IMG/VR virus record: IMGVR_UViG_3300043436_001089
DNA length: 64,000 nucleotides
DNA from: a virus
Lineage: Duplodnaviria > Heunggongvirae > Uroviricota > Caudoviricetes
Strand: one strand, 5' to 3'
In this document: in pieces, positions 5,863 through 55,736 of the stretch
Position numbering within the stretch: position 1 is the stretch's first letter
Layout: the number at the start of each line of letters is the position of its first letter
Position numbers and translations under genes: made by a program
The notes under the pieces: generated by a model
What the model saw: only the letters and a program-made list of their open reading frames with translations
The model's database searches: none
Told to the model about the DNA's origin: nothing

Positions 5863-5914
5863 TGATTGCTCCTATAGAAATTGATAACTTATTATAGCAT
5901 ACTTTTTATTTTAG

Positions 5915-5938
5915 CGCAAGTAGGAAAAGGGCATTACT
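5915..5938. terminator. Bidirectional intrinsic terminator (AAAAGGGCA-ttac-TGCCCTTTT)
   Basis: A perfect 9-bp stem is flanked by an A-run and a T-run. It lies in the gap between genes 5967-6233 and 5347-5862. Confidence 0.6.
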
Positions 5939-5966
5939 GCCCTTTTCCGTTTAACTCAGTATGAGA

Positions 5967-6233
5967 TTAAACGAGACCCATTGACAAAGCCTTGTAGCCT
6001 GCGGCGACAACTGCTCGGGTAGGGGTACCCAAACGATACTTGGTGAAAGTCTCACCACGCTTGTTTGTACGCTTGTTAGCGTACACTGCAAAACCACCGC
6101 GGATGCGAAGGTCGCTCACGGTTGCTGTTGGATTAGCAATACCGAAACGGCTAGTGATTTGCTTTGCGGTGAGTTGCTCACCTTTTTGTAGAGCCTCGAG
6201 TAAGGCCTGAGATTTTGTTGCAGTCGTATTCAT
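5967..6233 (-). CDS. Small putative DNA-binding protein (HTH-like, 88 aa)
   Basis: The start at M34 of the track ORF (ATG 6233) has a better Shine-Dalgarno sequence, AAAGGAAAAAA. The protein is basic and helical and is followed by the terminator. Confidence 0.4.
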   Translation of the reverse strand: MNTTATKSQALLEALQKGEQLTAKQITSRFGIANPTATVSDLRIRGGFAVYANKRTNKRGETFTKYRLGTPTRAVVAAGYKALSMGLV

Positions 6234-6332
6234 AACTTTTTTCCTTTTAAATGTTTCGTTGTTCTCACAACGTACATAGATTATACGACAAAACTTCTCA
6301 TTAAGCAACACGTATTGGACACCTGATTTCAC

Positions 6333-7181
6333 TTAGATGTCCAAATACTTTAACTCAAACACATCTGCTTGAGGATCGTGGCCGCCGTAACCGCGAGGAT
6401 TACATACGATTCTAGTTTCCCCGATCATGTAATCAAATGGGTCATGTGTATGTCCATGTGTCCATAATTTAATTTGCGGATGATCCAAAATGAATTCACT
6501 TAAGTCGCTACTGTAACCACCGTTCATTAAATAATCATTCTGATATTTTGGATGAGTAGATTGTTTACTAGGAGCATGGTGTCCTACCACTACAAACTTT
6601 TCATCATGCATACCTTGAACGACATTTTTTATGTAGCTCATTGATTGATGGTGTCTCCACATTGCATGTGCAGGTCGCAACTTAGTGTACCCATGTTCAT
6701 CGTTGCGAATGATTCTAAAGTCATTCATCATATCACTAATGGCATGTAGAGTAAGAGGGTCACCCTTATTCATATCAGTCCACAATGTGCAACCAATGAA
6801 TGTGTGCTCACCGATTGTTTTTATGTCATTTTCTAGGAAGTAGACATTAGTAAATTGGGCGCATTCTTCACGCAAGTGATCCAAACTTGCTTTCCACTTA
6901 CCGTGATAGAATTCATGATTACCCGCAATGTAGATAACATGCGGGAATTGAAAACTACAACGCTTCAAAAAGTCACGGAAGCGAAGGGCAGTTAGTTGTC
7001 TGCGACCCAAATCAGCAAGAGCACCTGAAGTATATGGATTGTAGTCAAAGTGTTTATGGTTGTGTAGGTCTTCGGCGATCATAATGTCGCCTGACAGGAT
7101 AAGGACCTCTGCACCCTCATCATTAGTGAGGTTAATGTCCTGAAACTCTAAGTGCAGGTCTGATGCTAATGCGATTTTCAT
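6333..7181 (-). CDS. Calcineurin-like metallophosphoesterase
   Basis: Motifs SDLHLE (DxH), LSGD, GNHE and GHTH are present. The start is taken at MKIALASDLH. Confidence 0.7.
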   Translation of the reverse strand: MKIALASDLHLEFQDINLTNDEGAEVLILSGDIMIAEDLHNHKHFDYNPYTSGALADLGRRQLTALRFRDFLKRCSFQFPHVIYIAGNHEFYHGKWKASLDHLREECAQFTNVYFLENDIKTIGEHTFIGCTLWTDMNKGDPLTLHAISDMMNDFRIIRNDEHGYTKLRPAHAMWRHHQSMSYIKNVVQGMHDEKFVVVGHHAPSKQSTHPKYQNDYLMNGGYSSDLSEFILDHPQIKLWTHGHTHDPFDYMIGETRIVCNPRGYGGHDPQADVFELKYLDI

Positions 7182-7428
7182 TTTCTTTTTGATAGTTATG
7201 TTGCAGACCAAAAGTCTGTTCTATTGCTTCTACACTTTTATTGATAGTACATTCAACTGTACCCAAATCGTATGTAGTATATGCACAATGCACGGGGGTG
7301 TTCTGTACGACTTCAATTACCTTTTCTAGTAGCAACTCGGCAAACTTTTCAAGTGTTGCCCCACCTACTTCTGGGTAATGACTACCGCCCGCTTGTAATG
7401 CTATTTCCTTTAATATTTGCTTGTTCAT
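7132..7428 (-). CDS. Hypothetical protein (overlapping both neighbours)
   Basis: 98-aa product from internal Met MNKQIL of the track ORF 7132-7509. It overlaps SWIM by 46 nt and the phosphoesterase by about 50 nt. Boundaries are uncertain. Confidence 0.3.
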   Translation of the reverse strand: MNKQILKEIALQAGGSHYPEVGGATLEKFAELLLEKVIEVVQNTPVHCAYTTYDLGTVECTINKSVEAIEQTFGLQHNYQKENENRISIRPALRVSGH

Positions 7429-7798
7429 TCTTTTCCTTAATTTCGTTGGTGTGTTTACATGTGTGTCTGAAAGAAAATCCAGGACATGTACACATATACT
7501 TAGCCCCAACTTTGGTCACGTAATACTTCTTGCCATTACTACCTTCAACTTCAATAGCTTGCTTGGGAGCAAATGCTTCTGTCTTAGTAAAGTAAACACT
7601 ATCAGGTTCACCCTTTGTCTTTAACTCTATGAATTTACGACCTTTACCGTAGAACGAGATTGGTTGCTTGAATTTGAAGAGGTCTTTAGTACCGTGCTTG
7701 ATGTAGCCTACCATTTTAGACTTGTCTTCATTTAGGTAATAGATATGGTTGACAGCAGTTGGGCTATCCCATTCGGTGACCTCTTCAAAGTATTTCAT
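7382..7798 (-). CDS. SWIM-type zinc-finger protein
   Basis: CTCPGFSFRHTCKH matches the SWIM signature CxCxnCxH. Confidence 0.6.
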   Translation of the reverse strand: MKYFEEVTEWDSPTAVNHIYYLNEDKSKMVGYIKHGTKDLFKFKQPISFYGKGRKFIELKTKGEPDSVYFTKTEAFAPKQAIEVEGSNGKKYYVTKVGAKYMCTCPGFSFRHTCKHTNEIKEKNEQANIKGNSITSGR

Positions 7799-8271
7799 TA
7801 AGCAACCTCTGTTTCTGCTTCTTTAGCAAATGCCTCAGTCAACAACATATAGTCACCGCTGTGATCGGATACAAACCAAGTAGCAACACCATTTACATTT
7901 CGCAAAATATAATCGTATTCTTCTTCCTGACCATCAACCAAAAAGTGTTCGTAATCGTTGAAATACCGTGCCTTAGTGTAGACTTCATTACGGTCACGAC
8001 CATAGAATGTAGTCATATCACGATACAGGTCAGAATACTGTTCCAATGTCATATCAGGAACATCATAGTGACTGAAGGGGTGCTTTGTGCCAATTGTTGG
8101 TCGCAGACTTGACACATCACCCAAGTCAATCAACTCTTGCAATTTAAAGGGATCAGAATAGTTCTCAAACAGAATCTTGCCGTTATGAGCCAGATAGCCA
8201 TCCCAGTGTGCATACACCTGACCAATGCGACCATCTGCGAATTCAAGAGCGATTGTAGAACGTGTTGCCAT
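7798..8271 (-). CDS. Hypothetical protein (first gene downstream of a consensus promoter copy)
   Basis: 157-aa ORF. The Shine-Dalgarno AAAGGA and promoter copy a lie immediately upstream. Confidence 0.45.
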   Translation of the reverse strand: MATRSTIALEFADGRIGQVYAHWDGYLAHNGKILFENYSDPFKLQELIDLGDVSSLRPTIGTKHPFSHYDVPDMTLEQYSDLYRDMTTFYGRDRNEVYTKARYFNDYEHFLVDGQEEEYDYILRNVNGVATWFVSDHSGDYMLLTEAFAKEAETEVA

Positions 8272-8304
8272 TTCGTAGTCCTTTAATTAACTGTTTAAGA
8301 TTCT

Positions 8305-8333
8305 ATTATATACCCAAAGTGATTTATTGTCAA
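8305..8333 (-). promoter_or_regulatory. Sigma70-consensus promoter copy a (TTGACA-17-TATAAT on minus strand)
   Basis: Plus-strand attata at 8305-8310 and tgtcaa at 8328-8333. The reverse complement reads TTGACAATAAATCACTTTGGGTATATAAT. Confidence 0.65.
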
Positions 8334-8346
8334 CCTTTTAGCATGG

Positions 8347-8544
8347 TTATGCAACCACTACTTCTTTCACACAGATTGCCTGCAACATGCAAAAAGCATC
8401 ATAATATTCTGTATCCGTCAAATCAGTAGACCGTTGTCTAGGTGTTCCGAAGCCAACTTCTAGTTGATAGTGATAATCGGCTATTCTCCAAAGAACTGCC
8501 GAGTCACCGTTTTCAATGTAACCTTTAGCAATAAATTGTGTCAT
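8347..8544 (-). CDS. Hypothetical small protein
   Basis: 65 aa with Shine-Dalgarno AAAGGA. Promoter copy b lies directly upstream. Confidence 0.45.
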   Translation of the reverse strand: MTQFIAKGYIENGDSAVLWRIADYHYQLEVGFGTPRQRSTDLTDTEYYDAFCMLQAICVKEVVVA

Positions 8545-8574
8545 TTTGTGTCCTTTTGTTGATTCAATACAAGT

Positions 8575-8603
8575 ATTATATACCCAAACCGATTTATTGT
8601 CAA
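8575..8603 (-). promoter_or_regulatory. Sigma70-consensus promoter copy b
   Basis: attata at 8575-8580, a 17-nt spacer, tgtcaa at 8598-8603. Near-identical to copy a. Confidence 0.65.
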
Positions 8604-8607
8604 CCTT

Positions 8608-8880
8608 TTACACCAGATCAACTTGGACTTGTTTTCCCCGTAGAGTGTGGCCTATACCTGTCGGCAATGGTTGATTTGTGCGCTTGGCTTCATAACGCAA
8701 ATACGACAATTTAATTAACGAATCCCAGCATGTAACGCGGGCATTAACTGTAGCAAACATTTCCGTCATTTGCTGGATTGTCATATACATACCGATATCG
8801 TTCTCGGAACCGTCACCCTTAAAAATCACACGGAATTTCTGAGAATTTTTGAAGCCATCAACAATAGTCTTTGTACGCAT
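8608..8880 (-). CDS. Hypothetical small protein
   Basis: 90 aa with Shine-Dalgarno AAAGGAA. Promoter copy c lies upstream. Confidence 0.45.
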   Translation of the reverse strand: MRTKTIVDGFKNSQKFRVIFKGDGSENDIGMYMTIQQMTEMFATVNARVTCWDSLIKLSYLRYEAKRTNQPLPTGIGHTLRGKQVQVDLV

Positions 8881-8908
8881 TTCAGTTCCTTTTTCAATCT
8901 ATGTATAG

Positions 8909-8937
8909 ATTATATGCCCAAACCGATTTATTGTCAA
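8909..8937 (-). promoter_or_regulatory. Sigma70-consensus promoter copy c
   Basis: attata at 8909-8914, a 17-nt spacer, tgtcaa at 8932-8937. Confidence 0.65.
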
Positions 8938-8953
8938 CCTTTAAAAGTAGTAC

Positions 8954-9469
8954 TTACTTACTAAGTAATTTAGAAAACATTCCCTTCTGTGCGAGTGTTT
9001 TACGTCCGGGTGTCGCATAATCCTTGTTCATGTGAGTTTTGAAACAATGGCAGTTATTACAAAGTGTTTGTAGATTTTTTTCACGGTTGTCTTTTGGGTT
9101 ACCGTTAATATGGTCTACTTCTAATTGAGCCGAATGACGAATTTTGTAATTGCATTTGAACCCCAATCGCCCGTCACGATTTTCACAATATTCTTTTCTG
9201 TGCTTGCGGTAAGGGTGGGTGCTATTTAAAAAATCAGCAACTGAATCAAAACCTGCCTTCTTTGCCATTACCTCAGCAATGTTTTTCAATCCATGTTTTT
9301 TTGCAGTCTTTATGTTGTGATGTGTTGTGCAAAGTTTTCTGAAAGCCGGCGTGCCATCTTTTCGATAATTACCAGTGTGCTGTGCAGCCTGTTTGCATCC
9401 TCGATGTGTGCAACGTGGACGTTCGTCCATAGGGATAAAAACTTTGTTTTCAGTTTCGGATGCTTTAGC
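8954..9469 (-). CDS. HNH endonuclease family protein
   Basis: DHINGNPKDNREKNLQTLCNNCH matches the HNH motif. CxxC/CxxH zinc ligands are present upstream. The start is trimmed to MAKASE so the promoter is not inside the ORF. Confidence 0.7.
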   Translation of the reverse strand, partial: AKASETENKVFIPMDERPRCTHRGCKQAAQHTGNYRKDGTPAFRKLCTTHHNIKTAKKHGLKNIAEVMAKKAGFDSVADFLNSTHPYRKHRKEYCENRDGRLGFKCNYKIRHSAQLEVDHINGNPKDNREKNLQTLCNNCHCFKTHMNKDYATPGRKTLAQKGMFSKLLSK

Positions 9470-9503
9470 CATAAAAAAATCCCTATTAAGTTGCAAAGAT
9501 GCA

Positions 9504-9532
9504 ATTATAACAGGGATTTTAGTTATTGTCAA
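9504..9532 (-). promoter_or_regulatory. Sigma70-consensus promoter copy d (more diverged flanks)
   Basis: attata at 9504-9509, a 17-nt spacer, tgtcaa at 9527-9532. It sits just downstream of the clpP stop. Confidence 0.55.
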
Positions 9533-9533
9533 T

Positions 9534-10124
9534 TTAAATACGTTTTTCAACGATCTTGTCAATCAATCCATAAGCTAGTGCTTCGTCTGCACTCATGAAT
9601 TTATCACGATCCATATCACGTTCAAATTCTTCGTATGTCTTACCTGCACTGTTGTGCTTGACATAGATTTCAGTCAAACGCTTTTTCAAGTATGTGATTT
9701 CTTTGTATGAAATTTCAATATCACTTTGCATACCACGTGCGCCACCTGATGGTTGATGAATCATGTGTCGTGCGTTTGGCAACATAAAACGTTTACCAGG
9801 TGCACCTGCTTGTGCAAGCAAACTACCCATTGAACAGGCTTGACCCATTACAATTGTATGTACATTGGGTTTGATAAATTGAATAGTATCATAGATAGCC
9901 ATACCTGCAGTAACACTGCCACCCGGGCTGTTAATGTACATTGAAATATCTTTTTCAGAATCTTCTGATTCAAGGAATAACAATTGGGCAACAATCAAGT
10001 TTGCCATTTGGTCGTGTACTTCACCTTCAAGTAAGATGACACGGTCACGCAATAAACGGCTATAAATGTCATAACTACGCTCACCTTTAGCGGTTTGCTC
10101 AATGACCATTGGGACTAGACTCAT
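9534..10124 (-). CDS. clpP: ATP-dependent Clp protease proteolytic subunit ClpP
   Basis: Catalytic Ser context GQACSMGS, His context MIHQPSGG, and full-length similarity to bacterial ClpP. Confidence 0.9.
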
Positions 10125-10193
10125 AATTATCCTTTAGTTAAAAGTTATATTGTACACTAGTAACAATACAAAATCAACAGTTATGGATACTTA

Positions 10194-11690
10194 TTATCTC
10201 TTTTTACGCTGACTTGTTTCTTTTTTCTTTTGTGATTTGGGTTCAGCAACATCTTTGGCAGCAGTAGCTAGATCGGGTTCGTTTTCCATACCGTCTACTG
10301 GTTCTTCGCCTGGCTCACTACTTACTGAATCATCAGTGCGGCCTAGTTTGAAACTGAAACCACCTGCAGTCGGATCAATTGCACTAGACTTGTTTTCAAC
10401 ACTAATCTTACCGTCTAGCTTTGCAGGCCATTGCGTAGCAAATGTCAGTTGACCACTCTTATAATCACAGTACTGTTGGATGAAGTTCATTTCTAGAATT
10501 TGAATGATAGCATCTTTGAACTCAGGAATAGCATCTTTGCTGTTCATAGCATCAGCTACTTCACGCTTGATACAGTATATCAATTTACCACCGTCACTTG
10601 CATTAGGAGAGTCAATATCATTAAACATGGGGTAATATTTTTTAGGCAAGGGTTGGTCAACACGTTGTTTTTTCAAGTCTAAACTCTCTTTAGCTAGGGT
10701 TGCAAGCTTTGGACTCTTTACTGCGAAAGGTAAAAACGTGTGCCACTTCTTGTTTATAGCTTTGGGGTTAACTTCAAAAATCAAATCCATAGCCGCAAAT
10801 GCTTGTGGGATTGTACCTAACTTCTGACAGATATCTATAAACTTGATAGCGTTTTCGTAGTTAGGATCCTGTCTGATATAGTCAGGAACTTTAAGGCCTG
10901 AAATAGCAGGAGCAGCTCCTCCACCGGTGCCCTTACTAGAGATATTCAATGTGTGATTGGTTGCGCTATTAGTAACAGTAGCATAGCTATCTGCCAAGTT
11001 TGTGTTTGCCTTCAACGGGAAGTTAACTGTCAACTGATTGGTATCAGCACCCATCCATCTTTGAAATTCTGCTTTTCTTGGGAAACGGCTACGATTGTAG
11101 ATTAATGCTAATACACCTAGGTATTCACCTGCGTAGTCAACAATAGCCTTACGCACTTTTTCTTTTTCTTTGCCCTGATACTCAGGGGGCAACATCACTG
11201 TATCACCCGAGACAATCATAGTTGCAAGTAGTTGAACAACTTGACCATAGTCTGTGCTGGCTAATACGGCATTGGAATTAATAACTTCATACAAGTCTTC
11301 CGCAGGGATATTCTTATCACAGATACCAATTTGACTTGGTTTGACAACTAATCCTTCTTTACCTGCTTGACTTGCATCTTGCCCGGCTGCAACCGCGGCA
11401 CCACCAAAGTCACCTGTTTTAGCTAACTGACTTAATGCAATTTCATCTCCGTCAGACAGCCGAATCTTTAATGCACCACCAAACTGTCCATTGTCAAATA
11501 GTTGTTGAAAACGTCTTGCTTCCCTAGGATCAGCAATAACTTCACTACCGTCAACTTTAGTAAAGGGCTTTTTAAATGTGATGTATTCAATGAATTTTTT
11601 AAATCGCCAATCGTATTTTTTGATTTCGTTGGCGCTCAAGCCCACTGGGGCTTCTGATAGGATTTGTATAAGGTCTAAGTATTCACGCAT
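10194..11690 (-). CDS. Hypothetical 498-aa protein with Gly/Ala-rich segments and a highly basic C-terminal tail
   Basis: Long ORF with no recognisable catalytic motif. The C-terminus is ...KSQKKKETSQRKKR. It lies directly upstream of clpP in transcription order. Confidence 0.5.
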   Translation of the reverse strand: MREYLDLIQILSEAPVGLSANEIKKYDWRFKKFIEYITFKKPFTKVDGSEVIADPREARRFQQLFDNGQFGGALKIRLSDGDEIALSQLAKTGDFGGAAVAAGQDASQAGKEGLVVKPSQIGICDKNIPAEDLYEVINSNAVLASTDYGQVVQLLATMIVSGDTVMLPPEYQGKEKEKVRKAIVDYAGEYLGVLALIYNRSRFPRKAEFQRWMGADTNQLTVNFPLKANTNLADSYATVTNSATNHTLNISSKGTGGGAAPAISGLKVPDYIRQDPNYENAIKFIDICQKLGTIPQAFAAMDLIFEVNPKAINKKWHTFLPFAVKSPKLATLAKESLDLKKQRVDQPLPKKYYPMFNDIDSPNASDGGKLIYCIKREVADAMNSKDAIPEFKDAIIQILEMNFIQQYCDYKSGQLTFATQWPAKLDGKISVENKSSAIDPTAGGFSFKLGRTDDSVSSEPGEEPVDGMENEPDLATAAKDVAEPKSQKKKETSQRKKR

Positions 11691-11708
11691 AATGAGTATT
11701 TATACGAT

Positions 11709-12200
11709 TTAACACTTAAATAGATTTTGATATCTAAACCACTTTCTTTTGCTATGTGCGCTCTTTAAAGGAATACCTAGCTTTTTAAGTTTCTCTCGGA
11801 ATATAAAAAAGCTTGGCCCATGACTCATAATAGGTTCTTTCCCCATGTTTAGTCTCCTTAGACCCTCCACATCCCATTGATATTGGTGACACATTTCATG
11901 AGCTAGTATTGTAATTAACCATTGTCTACAGTACCATTTATCCATCATTCTTATCTTGCAGTAGCTTCTAGTCTTAGTGGGCATTTGCAATGAACCATAG
12001 CACATTCCCCAATACTTTCTACAGCGTCCCATAACCTCAATCTCGGGCATAATCAATTTGTTATTGAATACGTGCTTATTCAGCATACGGTAAAGCTTGA
12101 CTACTTCATCATGATCCGTTCTATAACAAAGACGTTTCTGATAGGCTATGTTAGGAAGGTCTTCCTGCATCAGGTCTCTGAGGGTATTTTTTAAGAACAT
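11709..12200 (-). CDS. SprT-like zinc metalloprotease domain protein
   Basis: ILAHEMCHQYQW matches the SprT/Wss1 HExxH motif. Additional Cys pairs are present. Confidence 0.6.
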   Translation of the reverse strand: MFLKNTLRDLMQEDLPNIAYQKRLCYRTDHDEVVKLYRMLNKHVFNNKLIMPEIEVMGRCRKYWGMCYGSLQMPTKTRSYCKIRMMDKWYCRQWLITILAHEMCHQYQWDVEGLRRLNMGKEPIMSHGPSFFIFREKLKKLGIPLKSAHSKRKWFRYQNLFKC

Positions 12201-23940: not shown

Positions 23941-24479
23941 TATTCTTTATCTCCAAATGGCCATGCTGTTGTTGCTACAAAAGGGGGCCGGGGTTTCAAT
24001 TCAATCACTTCAATAGACTCATTATACACGTTTTCGTCTATTTTGTCAACCGTGAAGGGTCCGTAAATAGTAATACTATCTTCTTCTACTTCCCAATCAT
24101 GCTCTCCGTCATATAACCAAGCCGCTCCACTTCTCCCGTATTCATCATTTGGGTCACCCTCATACCAGAGTTTTTCAACTTCGGCTTTTTCTTCGTCAGT
24201 AAAACTGTCATCGAATTCAAACCAACAGGCACAGAGGTCATCGAGTTCACAACCCCAACCAATTGTAGGATCTACGTAATGAGACTTGTCATCACTGTAG
24301 GGTAGTTCGTCTTCATTCTCAACAAAGCCCTGACCCCAACGATACGTTTCTTTAACACTCCAACCTTTGATAGTACCATCGGGCATTCGCTTGAACACAT
24401 CATAAAATGCCTCGATTGATTTTTTATCGGTTGGTTTAATACGGTATAAGATGCTCATGTCGGTACTTTCAATATTCAT
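23940..24479 (-). CDS. Hypothetical acidic protein
   Basis: 179 aa, Trp- and Glu-rich. Confidence 0.45.
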   Translation of the reverse strand: MNIESTDMSILYRIKPTDKKSIEAFYDVFKRMPDGTIKGWSVKETYRWGQGFVENEDELPYSDDKSHYVDPTIGWGCELDDLCACWFEFDDSFTDEEKAEVEKLWYEGDPNDEYGRSGAAWLYDGEHDWEVEEDSITIYGPFTVDKIDENVYNESIEVIELKPRPPFVATTAWPFGDKE

Positions 24480-26096: not shown

Positions 26097-26354
26097 TTAA
26101 GCAAATTCGTAAAACTTAACAGATGGATCCAACTTTTGCAATTCACGTGCCGCCTTTGTCAATTCATTGTAACGGGCTTGAACAATACTACGGGGCAGTT
26201 CACCATCACAAGATAAATTCTCAGGACTCAAGTCACAATCAATACTATCGGCAATCTTTTGACGGTCAACTGCACTATCCAAAGTAAGTGCTTTGGCACC
26301 AAAGATTGTAGCGTATGCGTTCTTGCGATCCAGATACTTTTTTAATGCTGACAT
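26097..26354 (-). CDS. Hypothetical small protein (promoter copy e upstream)
   Basis: 85 aa with Shine-Dalgarno AAAGGAAA. Confidence 0.45.
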   Translation of the reverse strand: MSALKKYLDRKNAYATIFGAKALTLDSAVDRQKIADSIDCDLSPENLSCDGELPRSIVQARYNELTKAARELQKLDPSVKFYEFA

Positions 26355-26376
26355 TTCGTTTCCTTTTCTTTACTGT

Positions 26377-26405
26377 CTAAGATTCTATTATAGCACCAAA
26401 CCCAT
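26377..26405 (-). promoter_or_regulatory. Sigma70-consensus promoter copy e
   Basis: attata at 26377-26382, a 17-nt spacer, tgtcaa at 26400-26405. Conserved flank ctgtctaagattct. Confidence 0.6.
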
Positions 26406-26416
26406 TTATTGTCAAA

Positions 26417-26677
26417 TTACATTGACCAATACGTTTCGCTAGCAGGGTTGCAACAGTTAGGAGTGTCTGCATCAATCTCAATCAACTTACCGGTCATGAG
26501 ATTTTTGACTGTCTTTTTAGGAAACTGAAAGTTGGGGTTGAGAACCTTAAAAGCTTCCAAAGTCTTAGCAGGTTGTGCTAATGGATTCTGCGCAATAAAT
26601 TGCAATGTTTCCATCAAATTCATACCCAAGAACTGTGCTTCTTTTTGAATCTGTTTCAGTGCTGTTTCTGCTTTCAT
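26417..26677 (-). CDS. Hypothetical small protein (promoter copy f upstream)
   Basis: 86 aa with Shine-Dalgarno AAAGGA. Confidence 0.45.
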   Translation of the reverse strand: MKAETALKQIQKEAQFLGMNLMETLQFIAQNPLAQPAKTLEAFKVLNPNFQFPKKTVKNLMTGKLIEIDADTPNCCNPASETYWSM

Positions 26678-26709
26678 TTCATGTCCTTTAGTTAACTGTC
26701 TATGTATGT

Positions 26710-26738
26710 ATTATATACCCAAACTGATTTATTGTCAA
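26710..26738 (-). promoter_or_regulatory. Sigma70-consensus promoter copy f
   Basis: attata at 26710-26715, a 17-nt spacer, tgtcaa at 26733-26738. Confidence 0.65.
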
Positions 26739-26974
26739 ATTTTGGACACGCCTAGACGGAATTTATTTAGAACATCAGTGGCTTCCTGTACGGAACCTGA
26801 CAATGATTGTGAGAGGTCTAGAATCTCAATTGAATACATTTGTAGTAAATTTACAACATATTCCTGAATGTATACTTCTTGCTTAGTATACCAAGAACGA
26901 AATCCTGCAACACCTTGCTCGGCGAGAGTTTCTTGGATGAACTTGATGTTGTTCAAGTCGCGGGCTTCTGACAT
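26735..26974 (-). CDS. Hypothetical small protein (promoter copy g upstream)
   Basis: 79-aa ORF. Confidence 0.45.
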   Translation of the reverse strand: MSEARDLNNIKFIQETLAEQGVAGFRSWYTKQEVYIQEYVVNLLQMYSIEILDLSQSLSGSVQEATDVLNKFRLGVSKI

Positions 26975-26987
26975 AGATCACCTGTTT

Positions 26988-27620
26988 TTAAACTGTAATC
27001 TGTATTATAGTCCCAAAGTGGTTTATTGTCAAGTCTTTTGTTCCGTTGTTTTCTGCTATGATTGCATCCATCCAAGGCTTCATTTTCTCTTTTACTGCGT
27101 TCCATTTTTCTAAGAACTCATCCTTAATACCAGTGGTATCTTTACTGGTTATTTCGCCTATTTGATTTAATACTGATTCAGGGTCAGTTATTAATTTTTC
27201 TAATTCAATATTATATCTTTCAACCTTAGGATTTTCGATTATCTTTTCAATTTCTTCATATAATCCATTCAATGGAGCATATTTACCGATATGACCATAG
27301 CTGTGTATTACATGTTTAGCCCAAGTTTCAGGAGTAATTTCTAATGGACTAGTAATAATGTCTGGTCCAATCCAATGCTCTTCCCAAGCTTCATATATAG
27401 AAGTGTTTCCTTCGTTATATGTTTTTAGTATATTTTCTAGGAAATGATTAGTCATTACCCAAGCAAATGTACCATGTTGATAAGATATAATAACCGCGGT
27501 TTCATCATCTTCTAATTGTCTATAGTTGTTGTATTCACTAACTAATTCCAATTGAGTAAAGATATCTGAAATGAATGGGCCACTTGCTCCGTTGATTGAG
27601 ATTATAGAATATTTCTGCAT
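26988..27620 (-). CDS. Hypothetical protein
   Basis: 210-aa ORF. Confidence 0.5.
   Translation of the reverse strand: MQKYSIISINGASGPFISDIFTQLELVSEYNNYRQLEDDETAVIISYQHGTFAWVMTNHFLENILKTYNEGNTSIYEAWEEHWIGPDIITSPLEITPETWAKHVIHSYGHIGKYAPLNGLYEEIEKIIENPKVERYNIELEKLITDPESVLNQIGEITSKDTTGIKDEFLEKWNAVKEKMKPWMDAIIAENNGTKDLTINHFGTIIQITV
27004..27032 (-). promoter_or_regulatory. Sigma70-consensus promoter copy g
   Basis: attata at 27004-27009, a 17-nt spacer, tgtcaa at 27027-27032. Confidence 0.6.
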
Positions 27621-27646: not shown

Positions 27647-27672
27647 TAAAAAAGCCCCTTTTGGGGCTTTTT
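27647..27672. terminator. Bidirectional intrinsic terminator (AAAAAAGCCCC-tttt-GGGGCTTTTT)
   Basis: GC-rich 6-bp stem with a tttt loop, flanked by an A6 run and a T5 run. Confidence 0.65.
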
Positions 27673-35278: not shown

Positions 35279-36473
35279 TTTTCACTGTCTCCAAAATTTC
35301 ATCATCAAGTTCATTGAAGATATCGCAACCGTTTTGCATAAAATCGTTAACGTCACCGGTCAAGTAGTAATCACCACCGACACGTTGATAAATTTTCAAT
35401 ACAACAGCGAGAGCCGCATTGTGCGGGCAAGACGGTACATTCTTCAATGAAGGATGTGCTTTGCGAAAGTACTTAGTATAAGCACGTTCAGTTGATGTTC
35501 GCAGTCCGGCCAGGTCAGTGAAACATTCAAAAATGACAGAATTAAACTCATTCAGAAATTTCTTCCACTTTGTACCAGTTACTGGGAAATTGTTGTTTAG
35601 CATGTGTTCATACAAGTTGCCATACAAACCCCAGGTGGCCGCATCAACAAGAGTACCGTGCCAATATGTCTTGTGTGTTTGCAGAATGAATTCGAGTGTG
35701 ACCAAATTCCAATCATAGATCACATCAGACCGAGGAAGTGTACCTGCTTTACCAAAGTCTGGATGACCTTTAGGCAATGGGATAGCTTCGTATTTTTCGC
35801 AAAGTGTTTGACGAGCCTCAGCGTCAGTGTATTCTTTGCTTTGTGTTGGGTTATTGAATTTACGAACATCCGCAACTTTGATTTTGTGGTGGTCATATGG
35901 TTCCCATTTCTTTTGACCTTTGCCATTGCGATGCAATGCGGCTTCGGGTGTAAAGCTAGGGTGAGGTTCGTCTACCACGAATGCAGGGAACTTGAAGTTC
36001 AACCAATCTTTTGGATCATTGTCCCATAGCCCGTGCTTTGCTAGAAGACCAACAACAGCCAATCCGTGTTGAGTGTCAAAACATGACAATGTGCCATCTT
36101 TTTGTTTTGTCGCAAAGACAGGTGACAGTAAACGAGGGTCTAGATTTTTAAGAATGTCAGTGTGACAGTGACCCACATCCAAAAGACGTTGTGTAATTTC
36201 ATTGAACGTGTTTAAGCCAATGGGCGCTTGAATAAGTTTACCGATTTGATTCTTGTCGAATGTCTTTTTGTTTGCTTTGAGTGTGTTGATATACTCAATA
36301 GTTCCTGGGTTTTGTTCAAGCAACCCTACAGTGTCCTCCAAAGTCAAAACTTTTGGATTCGCAAGTTTCTTTGGGTCAAGTGGGTTGCGAATCTTACTAA
36401 TATCAATCTTCTGACCTTTCGGTACCTTTTTAAAAGGAAAGACGTAAGTTGTATCATGTGAAGATTTAGCCAT
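35265..36473 (-). CDS. Hypothetical 402-aa protein (downstream of promoter copy h)
   Basis: The start is trimmed to MAKSSHD (ATG 36473) with Shine-Dalgarno AAGGAG. The track ORF start would include the promoter. Confidence 0.5.
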   Translation of the reverse strand: MAKSSHDTTYVFPFKKVPKGQKIDISKIRNPLDPKKLANPKVLTLEDTVGLLEQNPGTIEYINTLKANKKTFDKNQIGKLIQAPIGLNTFNEITQRLLDVGHCHTDILKNLDPRLLSPVFATKQKDGTLSCFDTQHGLAVVGLLAKHGLWDNDPKDWLNFKFPAFVVDEPHPSFTPEAALHRNGKGQKKWEPYDHHKIKVADVRKFNNPTQSKEYTDAEARQTLCEKYEAIPLPKGHPDFGKAGTLPRSDVIYDWNLVTLEFILQTHKTYWHGTLVDAATWGLYGNLYEHMLNNNFPVTGTKWKKFLNEFNSVIFECFTDLAGLRTSTERAYTKYFRKAHPSLKNVPSCPHNAALAVVLKIYQRVGGDYYLTGDVNDFMQNGCDIFNELDDEILETVKNATI

Positions 36474-36507
36474 TAAAAAACTCCTTTGAGTGTTAAACAA
36501 TACTTGT

Positions 36508-36536
36508 ATTGTACACCCAAAGAAGTTAGTTGTCAA
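36508..36536 (-). promoter_or_regulatory. Sigma70-like promoter copy h (TTGACA-17-TACAAT)
   Basis: attgta at 36508-36513, a 17-nt spacer, tgtcaa at 36531-36536. The flanks (acccaaagaagttagttgtcaacc) resemble the other copies. Confidence 0.55.
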
Positions 36537-36565
36537 CCTTTTTATTGGTTTTTATTTTGAATACG

Positions 36566-54548: not shown

Positions 54549-54928
54549 TAAACTTTTACTTCTTCTTGTATTAGTGCTTTAACCATTTCAATCTTGTTGA
54601 TATAGTTATCCATTGTAGTTCGCATCTCAACCACGATATCGTTGATAGTAGGATGCTTTTCGCACAAGGCTTGTAATTCTTGTTCTTCAAACATCTTCTT
54701 TTCTGCCCACTTGAGAATGCTAATAGCATTTGATGATAGATTAACGGTAGCCTGACCACCACCTATAGTCATCCAATGACTACCATCATAGACCTTCATC
54801 TGTTGAGTACTAGGATCATAACTCATTGCACCTACCATAGGCTGATTACTAGACATATTGATATAAGGCTGAGCACCTTTGTTACTAATAACATTTAGGT
54901 ACTCACCACCAATTACGTAGTCAATCAT
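54548..54928 (-). CDS. Hypothetical protein
   Basis: 126-aa ORF. Confidence 0.4.
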   Translation of the reverse strand: MIDYVIGGEYLNVISNKGAQPYINMSSNQPMVGAMSYDPSTQQMKVYDGSHWMTIGGGQATVNLSSNAISILKWAEKKMFEEQELQALCEKHPTINDIVVEMRTTMDNYINKIEMVKALIQEEVKV

Positions 54929-55656
54929 TTTGCTTGTGCGGGCAACAAGTAGCGATATGTAGCTAGACCACTATCAACTGTGATTTCAACTGCTCCCGCA
55001 TCACTGATGCGAACAGTCTTGTCACCGGGAAGATCCATGATCGCTTGGAATACTTTGACAGGCCACTTGTGCGGCTTAGCCAATGTACCTGCGACACCTG
55101 AGTGAAACACGAAGTTACCTGAGTGAGTTGACGGGTCACCGAAGTATACCTTCAAGTCACCGTTCTCGGTCTTAGTAGCAAAGTTTTGTTCTTCACTGTT
55201 TGCACTAGCTTGCTTCTTTAGTCGCTGAATGCCTGCAATAGTAGGACTGAACTCAACGTTCCAAGACGCACCTTTGAAAGTAACAGTCTTGACACGTTCG
55301 TCCACGATTGACTTAGCCATCAAACGATAGTCGTTAATGAAGTCACCGTTTTTAGTTTCAAAGTGAATTGCGCTTGGTACATCTGCGCCATCACGTTGAG
55401 TTTGAGTGACATTGATCTTGGCATCAGTACCATAGTCATCAAAGCCCAAGATTGTTTTTAGCTTGCTTAAGTTAGGCATACCGAATGTGCCGATAAACTC
55501 TGCAATAGGTGCGTTCAATGTTCCGCTTACAACAACACTCTTGTCTTCTGCAATAGCATTGATTTGTGTCTCTTTGTCAGTACCTGTGATTTTAATCAAA
55601 TCAATAACACCTAGACCATGTGTGTATTGAATCAAGTCTTGTAAATTATCTTTCAT
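54925..55656 (-). CDS. Hypothetical protein, possible sliding-clamp (gp45-like) by position and size
   Basis: 243 aa, immediately downstream of the DNA polymerase gene. No motif proof. Confidence 0.3.
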   Translation of the reverse strand: MKDNLQDLIQYTHGLGVIDLIKITGTDKETQINAIAEDKSVVVSGTLNAPIAEFIGTFGMPNLSKLKTILGFDDYGTDAKINVTQTQRDGADVPSAIHFETKNGDFINDYRLMAKSIVDERVKTVTFKGASWNVEFSPTIAGIQRLKKQASANSEEQNFATKTENGDLKVYFGDPSTHSGNFVFHSGVAGTLAKPHKWPVKVFQAIMDLPGDKTVRISDAGAVEITVDSGLATYRYLLPAQAK

Positions 55657-55736
55657 GTTTTTCCTTTGTATAATAACTATTTAGGTAGTTCTTCAGCGTA
55701 TTATAGTGGAATATAATACGCTTGTCAACGACCTGT

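Follow-up and report, generated by a model that had tools for sequence, protein, structure and literature searches.

This analysis concerns a repeated promoter unit in a 64,000-nt stretch of viral DNA (IMG/VR record IMGVR_UViG_3300043436_001089; Caudoviricetes), which is referred to at its full length as the window. The unit, or module, is about 70 nt long and extends from -40 to the ATG of a small open reading frame (ORF); its conservation runs on from a sigma70-type consensus promoter through the leader and the Shine-Dalgarno (SD) sequence to that start codon. The window comes from a jumbo phage that belongs to the T4 superfamily and has not been cultured. The best explanation, to which we assign a probability of about 75%, is that the modules are strong early promoter/leader cassettes read by the host sigma factor and that they also act as recombination joints. 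They would thus represent, in a new phage lineage, a system similar to the promoter-early stem-loop (PeSL) cassettes that T4-type phages have, with the stem-loop as an optional part.

A family of promoter modules in the window and its relatives

A perfect TTGACA-N17-TATAAT is found four times on the minus strand, at 8305–8333, 8575–8603, 8909–8937 and 9504–9532, in a region where all of the genes lie on that strand. Each of the four sites is followed by an ATG 28–33 nt downstream, and the window as a whole holds nine perfect consensus sites against the 0.07 expected from shuffles. The original prediction of consensus sigma70-type modules is supported, each of them being placed to drive its own small gene. 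It had also counted four near-identical copies; the four hexamer pairs are indeed perfect, but only three of the copies belong together. A common conserved spacer, flanks and leader are restricted to modules M1, M2 and M3, with -35 elements beginning at 8333, 8603 and 8937. The 34-mer AAAGGTTGACAATAAATCGGTTTGGGTATATAAT is present at 8575–8608 without mismatch, at 8909–8942 with one mismatch and at 8305–8338 with two, where none is expected by chance, and it has a further match at 26710–26743.

The fourth site, which precedes the gene of an HNH endonuclease, shares only the two hexamers with this family. Its spacer ATAACTAAAATCCCTGT, its flanks and its SD (AGGGA) are unrelated; it scores 1.3 bits against the family profile (E=22), and its spacer agrees at 6 of 11 family positions. 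As the fourth site falls outside the family, the array consists of three modules plus one different promoter. The AAAGGA that had been described as the common SD is therefore a property of the three family copies and not of the HNH promoter.

The three modules, all on the minus strand, start with the short motif AAAGG. M1 (8272..8338) has its -35 TTGACA at 8333–8328, the spacer ATAAATCACTTTGGGTA and the -10 TATAAT at 8310–8305, followed by a type-A leader with SD AAAGGA that ends at the ATG (8271) of a 157-aa ORF (nhmmer score 60.6 bits). M2 (8545..8608) combines a -35 at 8603–8598, the spacer ATAAATCGGTTTGGGTA and a -10 at 8580–8575 with a type-B leader and SD AAAGGA, ending at the ATG (8544) of a 65-aa ORF (55.8 bits); the stop codon of the upstream ORF (8608–8610) abuts it. 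M3 (8881..8942), with its -35 at 8937–8932, spacer ATAAATCGGTTTGGGCA and -10 at 8914–8909, carries a type-B-like leader and SD AAAGGA and ends at the ATG (8880) of a 90-aa ORF (54.3 bits). Stop codons lie 13, 4 and 16 nt ahead of the -35 in M1, M2 and M3, respectively, and the intergenic spaces of 63–75 nt are nearly all module.

The family extends well beyond the region first described, with further promoters at 26387–26415, 26710–26738 and 27004–27032 and a diverged one at 36508–36536. The first three form a second array at 26.4–27.0 kb, also on the minus strand, which brings the window total, with the diverged copy at 36.5 kb, to seven copies. M6 (26355..26420; -35 at 26415–26410, -10 at 26392–26387; type-A leader; 57.6 bits) precedes an 85-aa ORF at 26097–26354. 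M5 (26678..26743; -35 at 26738–26733, -10 at 26715–26710; type-A leader; 64.1 bits) precedes an 86-aa ORF at 26417–26677, and its upstream ORF ends at the TGA within TTGACA. M4 (26975..27037; -35 at 27032–27027, -10 at 27009–27004; 47.0 bits) precedes a 79-aa ORF at 26735–26974 and sits within the 3´ end of a 210-aa ORF. The diverged member (36474..36542, minus strand; 23.2 bits) reads AAAGG TTGACA ACTAACTTCTTTGGGTG TACAAT and has a type-B leader, the SD AAGGAG and an ATG at 36473. The upstream AAAGG that is common to M1–M3 is lacking in the 26-kb copies.

The spacer-specific pattern TTGACAATAAAYNNNTTTGGNNNTATAAT was matched in at least 120 IMG/VR contig stretches, and those listed are all relatives of the window, with conserved genes at 68–94% nucleotide identity. 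Copies were collected with this pattern and with a profile built from the window copies, the profile search giving 342 modules over 1.09 Mb of contigs from related jumbo phages that have not been cultured. The spacer is 17 nt long in all 342, and 274 of them have both hexamers intact at 12/12 positions. The consensus of the 320 unique copies begins at -40 and reads AAAR N TTGACA ATAAAT S G N TTTGG G T A TATAAT, continuing after the -10 with A S A N N C W T A G A C A G T ... AAAGGA ... ATG. Two main leader types were distinguished, type A (CTTAGACAGT) in 182 copies and type B (TGTATTGATTGA) in 69, and the distance from the -10 to the ATG is 29–34 nt, with an SD, in about 92% of copies.

Within the spacer of the unique copies, the positions -29 to -24 (ATAAAT) and -20 to -16 (TTTGG) are 86–99% invariant, whereas -23 to -21 are essentially random. 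The spacer as a whole carries 21.4 bits of information, compared with 23.0 bits for the two hexamers. The invariant positions are under position-specific purifying selection. Conservation past the hexamers, as initially proposed, does continue through the leader to the ATG; on the upstream side it covers only about 5 nt (AAARN), with -40 to -38 rich in A. Neither conservation beyond -41 nor a defined A/T tract between -41 and -60 was found in the 320 unique copies, where the information is close to zero and the sequence is usually the 3´ end of the upstream ORF. The proposed UP-element role finds no footing in these sequences, nor is there an extended -10 of the TGn type: -15 is G in 233 of 320 copies and -14 is T in 197 of 320, with a G-T-A consensus.

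Not every consensus promoter of the clade belongs to the family. Among 341 perfect sites, 261 have the family spacer and 46 have unrelated spacers, a class that includes the window promoter of the HNH gene and those at 24021–24049 and 55700–55728. The median downstream gene is 200 aa for the unrelated-spacer promoters and 90 aa for the family. In several non-family consensus promoters of related loci (for example L023, L029, L053, L064, L091, L095, L104 and L117), the ATG lies 5–6 nt past TATAAT, which suggests that leaderless mRNAs may exist in this phage clade.

The genes behind the modules are as diverse as the modules are uniform. The 312 module-driven ORFs fall into 80 unrelated families, and paralogs within one locus occur in only one of them. 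All-vs-all blastp of the six window cargo ORFs gave no mutual similarity, and searches against Pfam, PHROGs and PDB sequences returned nothing informative on function. The 157-aa ORF (7798..8271, minus strand; family F2) matches phrog_1987, a group of unknown function. The 65-aa ORF (8347..8544, minus strand; family F12) is an ORFan that, within the 120 IMG/VR loci, occurs only in L022 and in L039, where the cassettes are ordered differently; the near-identical strains L129–L134 have it as well. The 90-aa ORF (8608..8880, minus strand; family F0), likewise an ORFan, has many relatives at varying array positions and behind varying promoter/leader variants. The label of host-takeover genes is left without a Pfam, PHROG-function or PDB match to support it.

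With regard to the phage itself, the jumbo assignment follows from related IMG/VR contigs that reach 349–364 kb. The T4-type DNA polymerase encoded by the window (overall GC 39%) has 49% identity with its counterpart in Sinorhizobium phage Phosso, 47% with that in Agrobacterium phage Atu_ph07 and 44% with that in RaK2. Its ClpP is 70% identical to that of Phosso and 67% to that of Atu_ph07, the nearest cultured relatives. No cultured phage shows a nucleotide-level match to the region or to the module, and comparable promoters or repeats were not found in the clpP neighbourhood of Atu_ph07. Positions 5900–11880 are 100% identical to contig Ga0453135_0000031 (155,510 bp) of JGI metagenome 3300042868. 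The E. coli sigma70 named originally finds no support, the phage being an uncultured relative of Sinorhizobium and Agrobacterium jumbo phages.

A scan of 185,579 bacterial species genomes with the spacer-specific pattern yielded seven matches in all. Six are chance promoters, unrelated to the family, in genomes of Firmicutes or the candidate phyla radiation (CPR), and the seventh is a 1.9-kb contig of the phage clade in a metagenome-assembled genome (MAG) bin from Lake Erken. None of them is host-informative, and mimicry of host promoters, as well as host identification by this route, was rejected for this reason.

Cassette exchange and the comparison with known phage systems

The original prediction missed that the modules bound mobile gene cassettes, as the comparison of related genomes shows. 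When the window was aligned with the 120 loci, 44 of 46 high-scoring segment pairs (HSPs) of at least 150 nt started within 13 nt of the -35 edge of a module, compared with 2% by chance. The other HSP ends are often at the edge of the next module, at its -10 or at the next ATG. The interval between clpP and the metallophosphoesterase gene ranges from 1.8 to 4.1 kb and contains two to six modules, and both the content and the order of its cassettes vary in 16 loci. For instance, the order F0-F12-F2 of the window contrasts with F12-F0-x-F2 in L039.

Cassettes also differ between relatives in their genomic location. M5 and its 86-aa ORF, which are in the 26.4-kb array of the window (26352–26743), occupy the clpP array in L094 (8105–8490), L058 and L063, the L094 ortholog being 86% identical at the amino acid level; similarly, a homolog of the 85-aa ORF is found in the clpP array of L027. 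Furthermore, genes and modules are not inherited as fixed pairs. The F0 proteins of the window and L094 are 97.8% identical, yet the 3´ halves of the spacers, the -10 elements (TATAAT vs TACAAT) and the leader types all differ. More than one leader type is found in 19 of the 26 ORF families with at least three members.

The sharpest junctions come from near-identical strains. L129, L132 and L134 are 96–97% identical to the window over 8939–8267, that is, through the F0 and F12 cassettes from 2 nt upstream of the M3 -35 to the ATG of the 157-aa ORF; past this ATG they have an unrelated 88-aa ORF. M1 is the same, base for base, in the window, L132 and L134 as far as ATGGC. Conversely, L131 keeps the 157-aa ORF and differs in the spacer triplet and in the 3´ half of the leader. 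By comparison, then, relocation of cassettes, replacement of ORFs and breakpoints at module edges can be traced in this clade.

These data are compatible with the following mechanism. Once the phage DNA enters the cell, host RNA polymerase (RNAP) with its primary sigma factor would bind the perfect -35 and -10 elements over the optimal 17-bp spacer, with predicted transcription starts 7–9 nt past TATAAT (about 8296–8298, 8566–8568 and 8900–8902). The leader would be 20–27 nt long, A-rich and unstructured; because it contains a strong SD, AAAGGA at 5–8 nt before the ATG, each small ORF would be expressed on its own. No terminators were found between the cassettes of the window array, so that nested read-through transcripts would extend into the next cassettes. 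The roughly 70 nt of homology provided by each module would then be used by the recombination system of the phage to exchange, insert, delete or relocate a module together with its small ORF. The invariant spacer positions most likely tune the interaction between RNAP and promoter. For RNAP alone, it is documented that the spacer can act through sigma and the beta´ zipper (PMC3173786), and T4 early promoters likewise have additional consensus (PMC2988021).

PeSL cassettes have been described in the T4-type phages RB49/phi1, T4/PST and KVP40/nt-1 (Arbiol et al. 2010, PMC2839356; Comeau et al. 2014, PMC4122927). Among their features are demonstrated promoter (and terminator) activity and mini-circles excised in the course of infection through recombination of adjacent elements. 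They share with the modules a repeated intergenic unit of about 70–100 nt, in which the upstream stop codon comes first, then a near-perfect TTGACA-N17-TATAAT promoter, and finally the SD and start codon of a small ORFan. In M1–M3, the promoter matches at 12/12 positions with a 17-nt spacer, the stop codon lies in an A/T-rich stretch before the -35, and the SD and ATG are at the 3´ end. In both systems, the units cluster in hyperplastic regions between conserved genes, beside variable small ORFans, and indels, replacements and displacements break in or at the units, either between the -10 and the ATG or at the upstream edge. The phage itself, with its T4-type DNA polymerase, belongs to the same superfamily. 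There are also clear differences. The lineage, with contigs of about 350–364 kb, is placed near Atu_ph07 and Phosso and not in the Tevenvirinae. The GC-rich stem-loop or terminator is mostly missing. The feature that sets the modules apart is a strongly conserved spacer (21 bits) and leader, the latter in two types.

A second point of reference is provided by the early "uber" promoters of T4 (Hinton 2010, PMC2988021), which are thought to out-compete host promoters right after infection. As in T4, the modules would be used by a host sigma70-type RNAP, have a consensus that reaches past the hexamers and stand in many copies before small non-essential early genes. Unlike the T4 promoters, they have no UP element (-41 to -60 is unconserved) and no TGn, with G/T instead of T/G at -15/-14; their -35 is TTGACA and not GTTTAC, and their extra information resides in the spacer and the transcribed leader. 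The initial reading as early promoters was broadly right, in that the modules look like those of a T4-superfamily phage, and they would work much as PeSL cassettes and T4-type early promoters do.

Several points weigh against this explanation. The stem-loop that defines PeSL cassettes is absent from all seven window copies, in which no terminator-like hairpin was found within the 55 nt upstream, and clade-wide it accompanies only 51 of 336 modules (about 15%). However, the M3 orthologs of L129, L131, L132 and L134 are preceded by a canonical GC-rich terminator, AGCCCCGGAAACGGGGCTTTTTTT, followed by CGG and then by TTGACA. Because this terminator directly precedes the M3 ortholog in strains that lack the HNH gene, the full PeSL architecture does occur in the clade, and the stem-loop is an optional element outside the conserved unit. 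In addition, collecting copies by pattern and profile inflates the apparent conservation of the seeded positions, although the same consensus is obtained from the 146 copies outside the seed pattern. Promoter activity, start sites and early timing are deduced from sequence, and recombination at the modules from comparative breakpoints. Finally, ongoing local gene conversion is weak, because adjacent modules are only slightly more alike than modules of different loci (similarity 0.67 vs 0.59); strong concerted evolution within a genome was rejected on account of this small excess.

A role at the RNA level was also considered. The module RNAs show no structure (mean folding z of about 0) and have no Rfam match at E ≤ 1, so a structured RNA or known RNA family was rejected. 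A 5-bp CCAAA/TTTGG pairing across the -35 was judged too weak, with its 17-nt loop, to count as a stem-loop; as read from the sequences, CCAAA is limited to about 40% of copies, C standing at -42/-41 in 121–129 of 320.

Alternative explanations

The alternative that survives best, although clearly improbable beside the explanation by promoter cassettes and recombination joints, holds that a dedicated protein, of the phage or of the host, uses the spacer motif ATAAAT-N3-TTTGG as its operator or recognition site, which would make the modules a separately regulated promoter class. Such a protein might be injected and act as an activator, repress the promoters for early shutoff or help in recombination, and it would add a layer to the preferred explanation without conflicting with it. 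Such a site would account for spacer information that comes close to the level of the hexamers and for the sharp separation between invariant and randomised spacer positions. A further argument comes from the 46 perfect consensus promoters without the family spacer, which precede the larger genes and indicate that this spacer is not needed for a consensus promoter as such. The authors of the PeSL studies also speculated on a helper protein. On the other hand, the spacer lacks dyad symmetry, no candidate for a protein that binds it emerged, and effects of A/T-rich sequence just after the -35 and of the spacer through sigma or the beta´ zipper are known for RNAP alone (PMC3173786, PMC2988021). 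The motif does not resemble the published Z-element, either: contact with the beta´ zipper through this element was rejected, as the AACCT published for -22 to -18 is replaced here by GNTTT.

In a more specific version, which we consider somewhat less probable still, the family spacer, invariant ahead of 80 unrelated gene families in a diverged clade but not found in other perfect consensus promoters of these genomes, could mark a distinct promoter class. RNAP would read it with the help of a dedicated factor, either encoded by the phage or injected with the virion, or of a recombination helper. If this were true, the cassette genes would be a regulon with a timing of its own, and mobility would be actively directed at the module, which would then be more than a passive patch of homology.

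It is very unlikely that the spacer ATAAAT doubles as a T4-type late promoter (TATAAATA-like), with the small genes expressed both early and late. ATAAAT agrees with TATAAATA at six of eight positions, and ATAAATA in the window is strongly strand-biased, with 16 occurrences on the gene strand and two on the other. However, ATAAAT in the modules is followed by C or G in 311 of 320 copies and by A in just five, and the base that precedes it is A and not T. Since the base after ATAAAT is almost never A, the gene-junction motif ATAAATA is specifically absent from the modules, and a late-type promoter within the spacer was rejected. As a separate observation, ATAAATA is often found 2–8 nt before the ATG at gene junctions on the minus strand (for example 11704, 30755, 61758, 31589, 30292, 18668 and 4410), with TATAAATA itself at 11704 and 30755. 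These sites may be late promoters with very short leaders, or a junction motif.

Even less credit can be given to local tandem duplication of one promoter-plus-gene unit, three or four times over, with subsequent divergence of the genes, which is the duplicated cassette first envisaged. M1–M3 are adjacent, they share the AAAGG that the 26-kb copies lack, and neighbouring modules are marginally more similar than distant ones. This scenario is already contradicted: the downstream proteins are mutually dissimilar, the same module stands ahead of 80 unrelated ORF families in the 120 related contigs, and orthologs of every cargo ORF are found in other places with different variants of the module. 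The downstream ORFs are thus not paralogs, and the modules belong to a clade-wide family of 342 copies with at least 80 unrelated ORF families; gene duplication as judged by ORF paralogy was rejected after the all-vs-all blastp came back empty.

The weakest proposal, that the modules are site-specific recombination sites (integron attC-like or homing-endonuclease targets) and not promoters, can draw on the integron-like arrays of small promoter-flanked cassettes with variable content and on the HNH gene adjoining the array, but it is opposed by the absence from the modules of any hairpin or imperfect inverted repeat of the attC kind, by the absence of an integrase among ten neighbouring ORFs scanned against PHROGs, by the lack of the HNH gene in nearly all module-bearing relatives, and by breakpoints that vary within the module (-40 edge, spacer or ATG) and therefore fit homologous exchange instead of a fixed crossover point.

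The HNH unit, neighbouring features and meaning of the modules

The non-family promoter (9473..9532, minus strand; -35 at 9532–9527, -10 at 9509–9504) is embedded in a 45-nt hairpin (9520–9476) that is followed by a T-run and resembles a terminator. Folding z-scores are -3.84 for 106 nt of this region and -6.8 for 64 nt. In RNA that reads through from clpP, transcription would end at this hairpin, which would also base-pair with the HNH SD (AGGGA). Transcripts that begin at the embedded promoter would leave the SD free, because they lack the left arm of the hairpin. The HNH promoter, which has the stem-loop that the family copies of the window lack, corresponds to the PeSL-like subclass with the stem-loop over the -10 box.

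The gene behind it (8954..9472, minus strand) encodes an HNH endonuclease of 172 aa. It is present in the window and in two near-identical contigs, L130 and L133, and absent from the closest strains, L129, L131, L132 and L134; no ortholog was found among the 120 IMG/VR loci. It follows that a mobile endonuclease was inserted here recently, with the stop codon of clpP on one side and AGTACTACTTTT on the other. In the strains without it, AGTACTACTTTT is followed by the GC-rich terminator, which is missing in the window. Freestanding homing-endonuclease genes with their own promoter and a hairpin that sequesters the ribosome-binding site (RBS) are found in T4 as the seg and mob genes.

Like such genes and like morons (Hendrix et al. 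2000), the HNH unit (8954–9532) is autonomous, with its own promoter and terminator-like hairpin, and is present or absent between near-identical strains. The three family modules differ from morons in that the conserved and recombining part is the flanking regulatory sequence, which lies outside the moron concept. In L129, L132 and L134, where the 157-aa ORF is replaced, the variable region (about 5.5–6.1 kb in locus coordinates) also has a 156-aa NUMOD3-domain protein, probably another gene of the homing-endonuclease type.

Upstream of the HNH unit lies the gene of a ClpP-type protease (9534–10124, minus strand), annotated in PHROGs as a head maturation protease or ATP-dependent Clp protease. 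Between near-identical strains, clpP is 87% identical at the nucleotide level and thus more diverged than the adjoining cassettes (94–97%), a contrast that indicates a mosaic junction at the module.

Two other sites of the window deserve mention. At 55700–55728 (minus strand), upstream of a 243-aa ORF (54925–55656), a perfect TTGACA-17-TATAAT without the family spacer has an 11-bp inverted repeat, AGCGTATTATA / TATAATACGCT, over the spacer and the -10 box (fold z = -4.2), and it belongs to the same PeSL-like subclass as the HNH promoter. At 27648–27668 (minus strand), the 210-aa ORF is preceded by a canonical GC-rich intrinsic terminator, AGCCCCAAAAGGGGCT, with a T-run; next comes ATAAATA, enclosed by a 7-bp inverted repeat (CTGATAT...ATATCAG) directly ahead of the ATG at 27620.

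With the modules, the PeSL idea that conserved promoter cassettes are also joints for the shuffling of small accessory genes is extended from T-even-type phages to a lineage of uncultured jumbo phages. The sample is unusually large and clean, with 342 copies, 80 cargo families and breakpoints at the strain level, and in it the conserved recombining part is the promoter-leader unit and not the stem-loop. The conservation of the spacer provides a concrete, testable case of functional information in the spacer of a sigma70 promoter. The module is also a candidate for a strong, portable promoter/RBS part, and in the metagenomic contigs of this clade it is a good marker of early and accessory gene cassettes.

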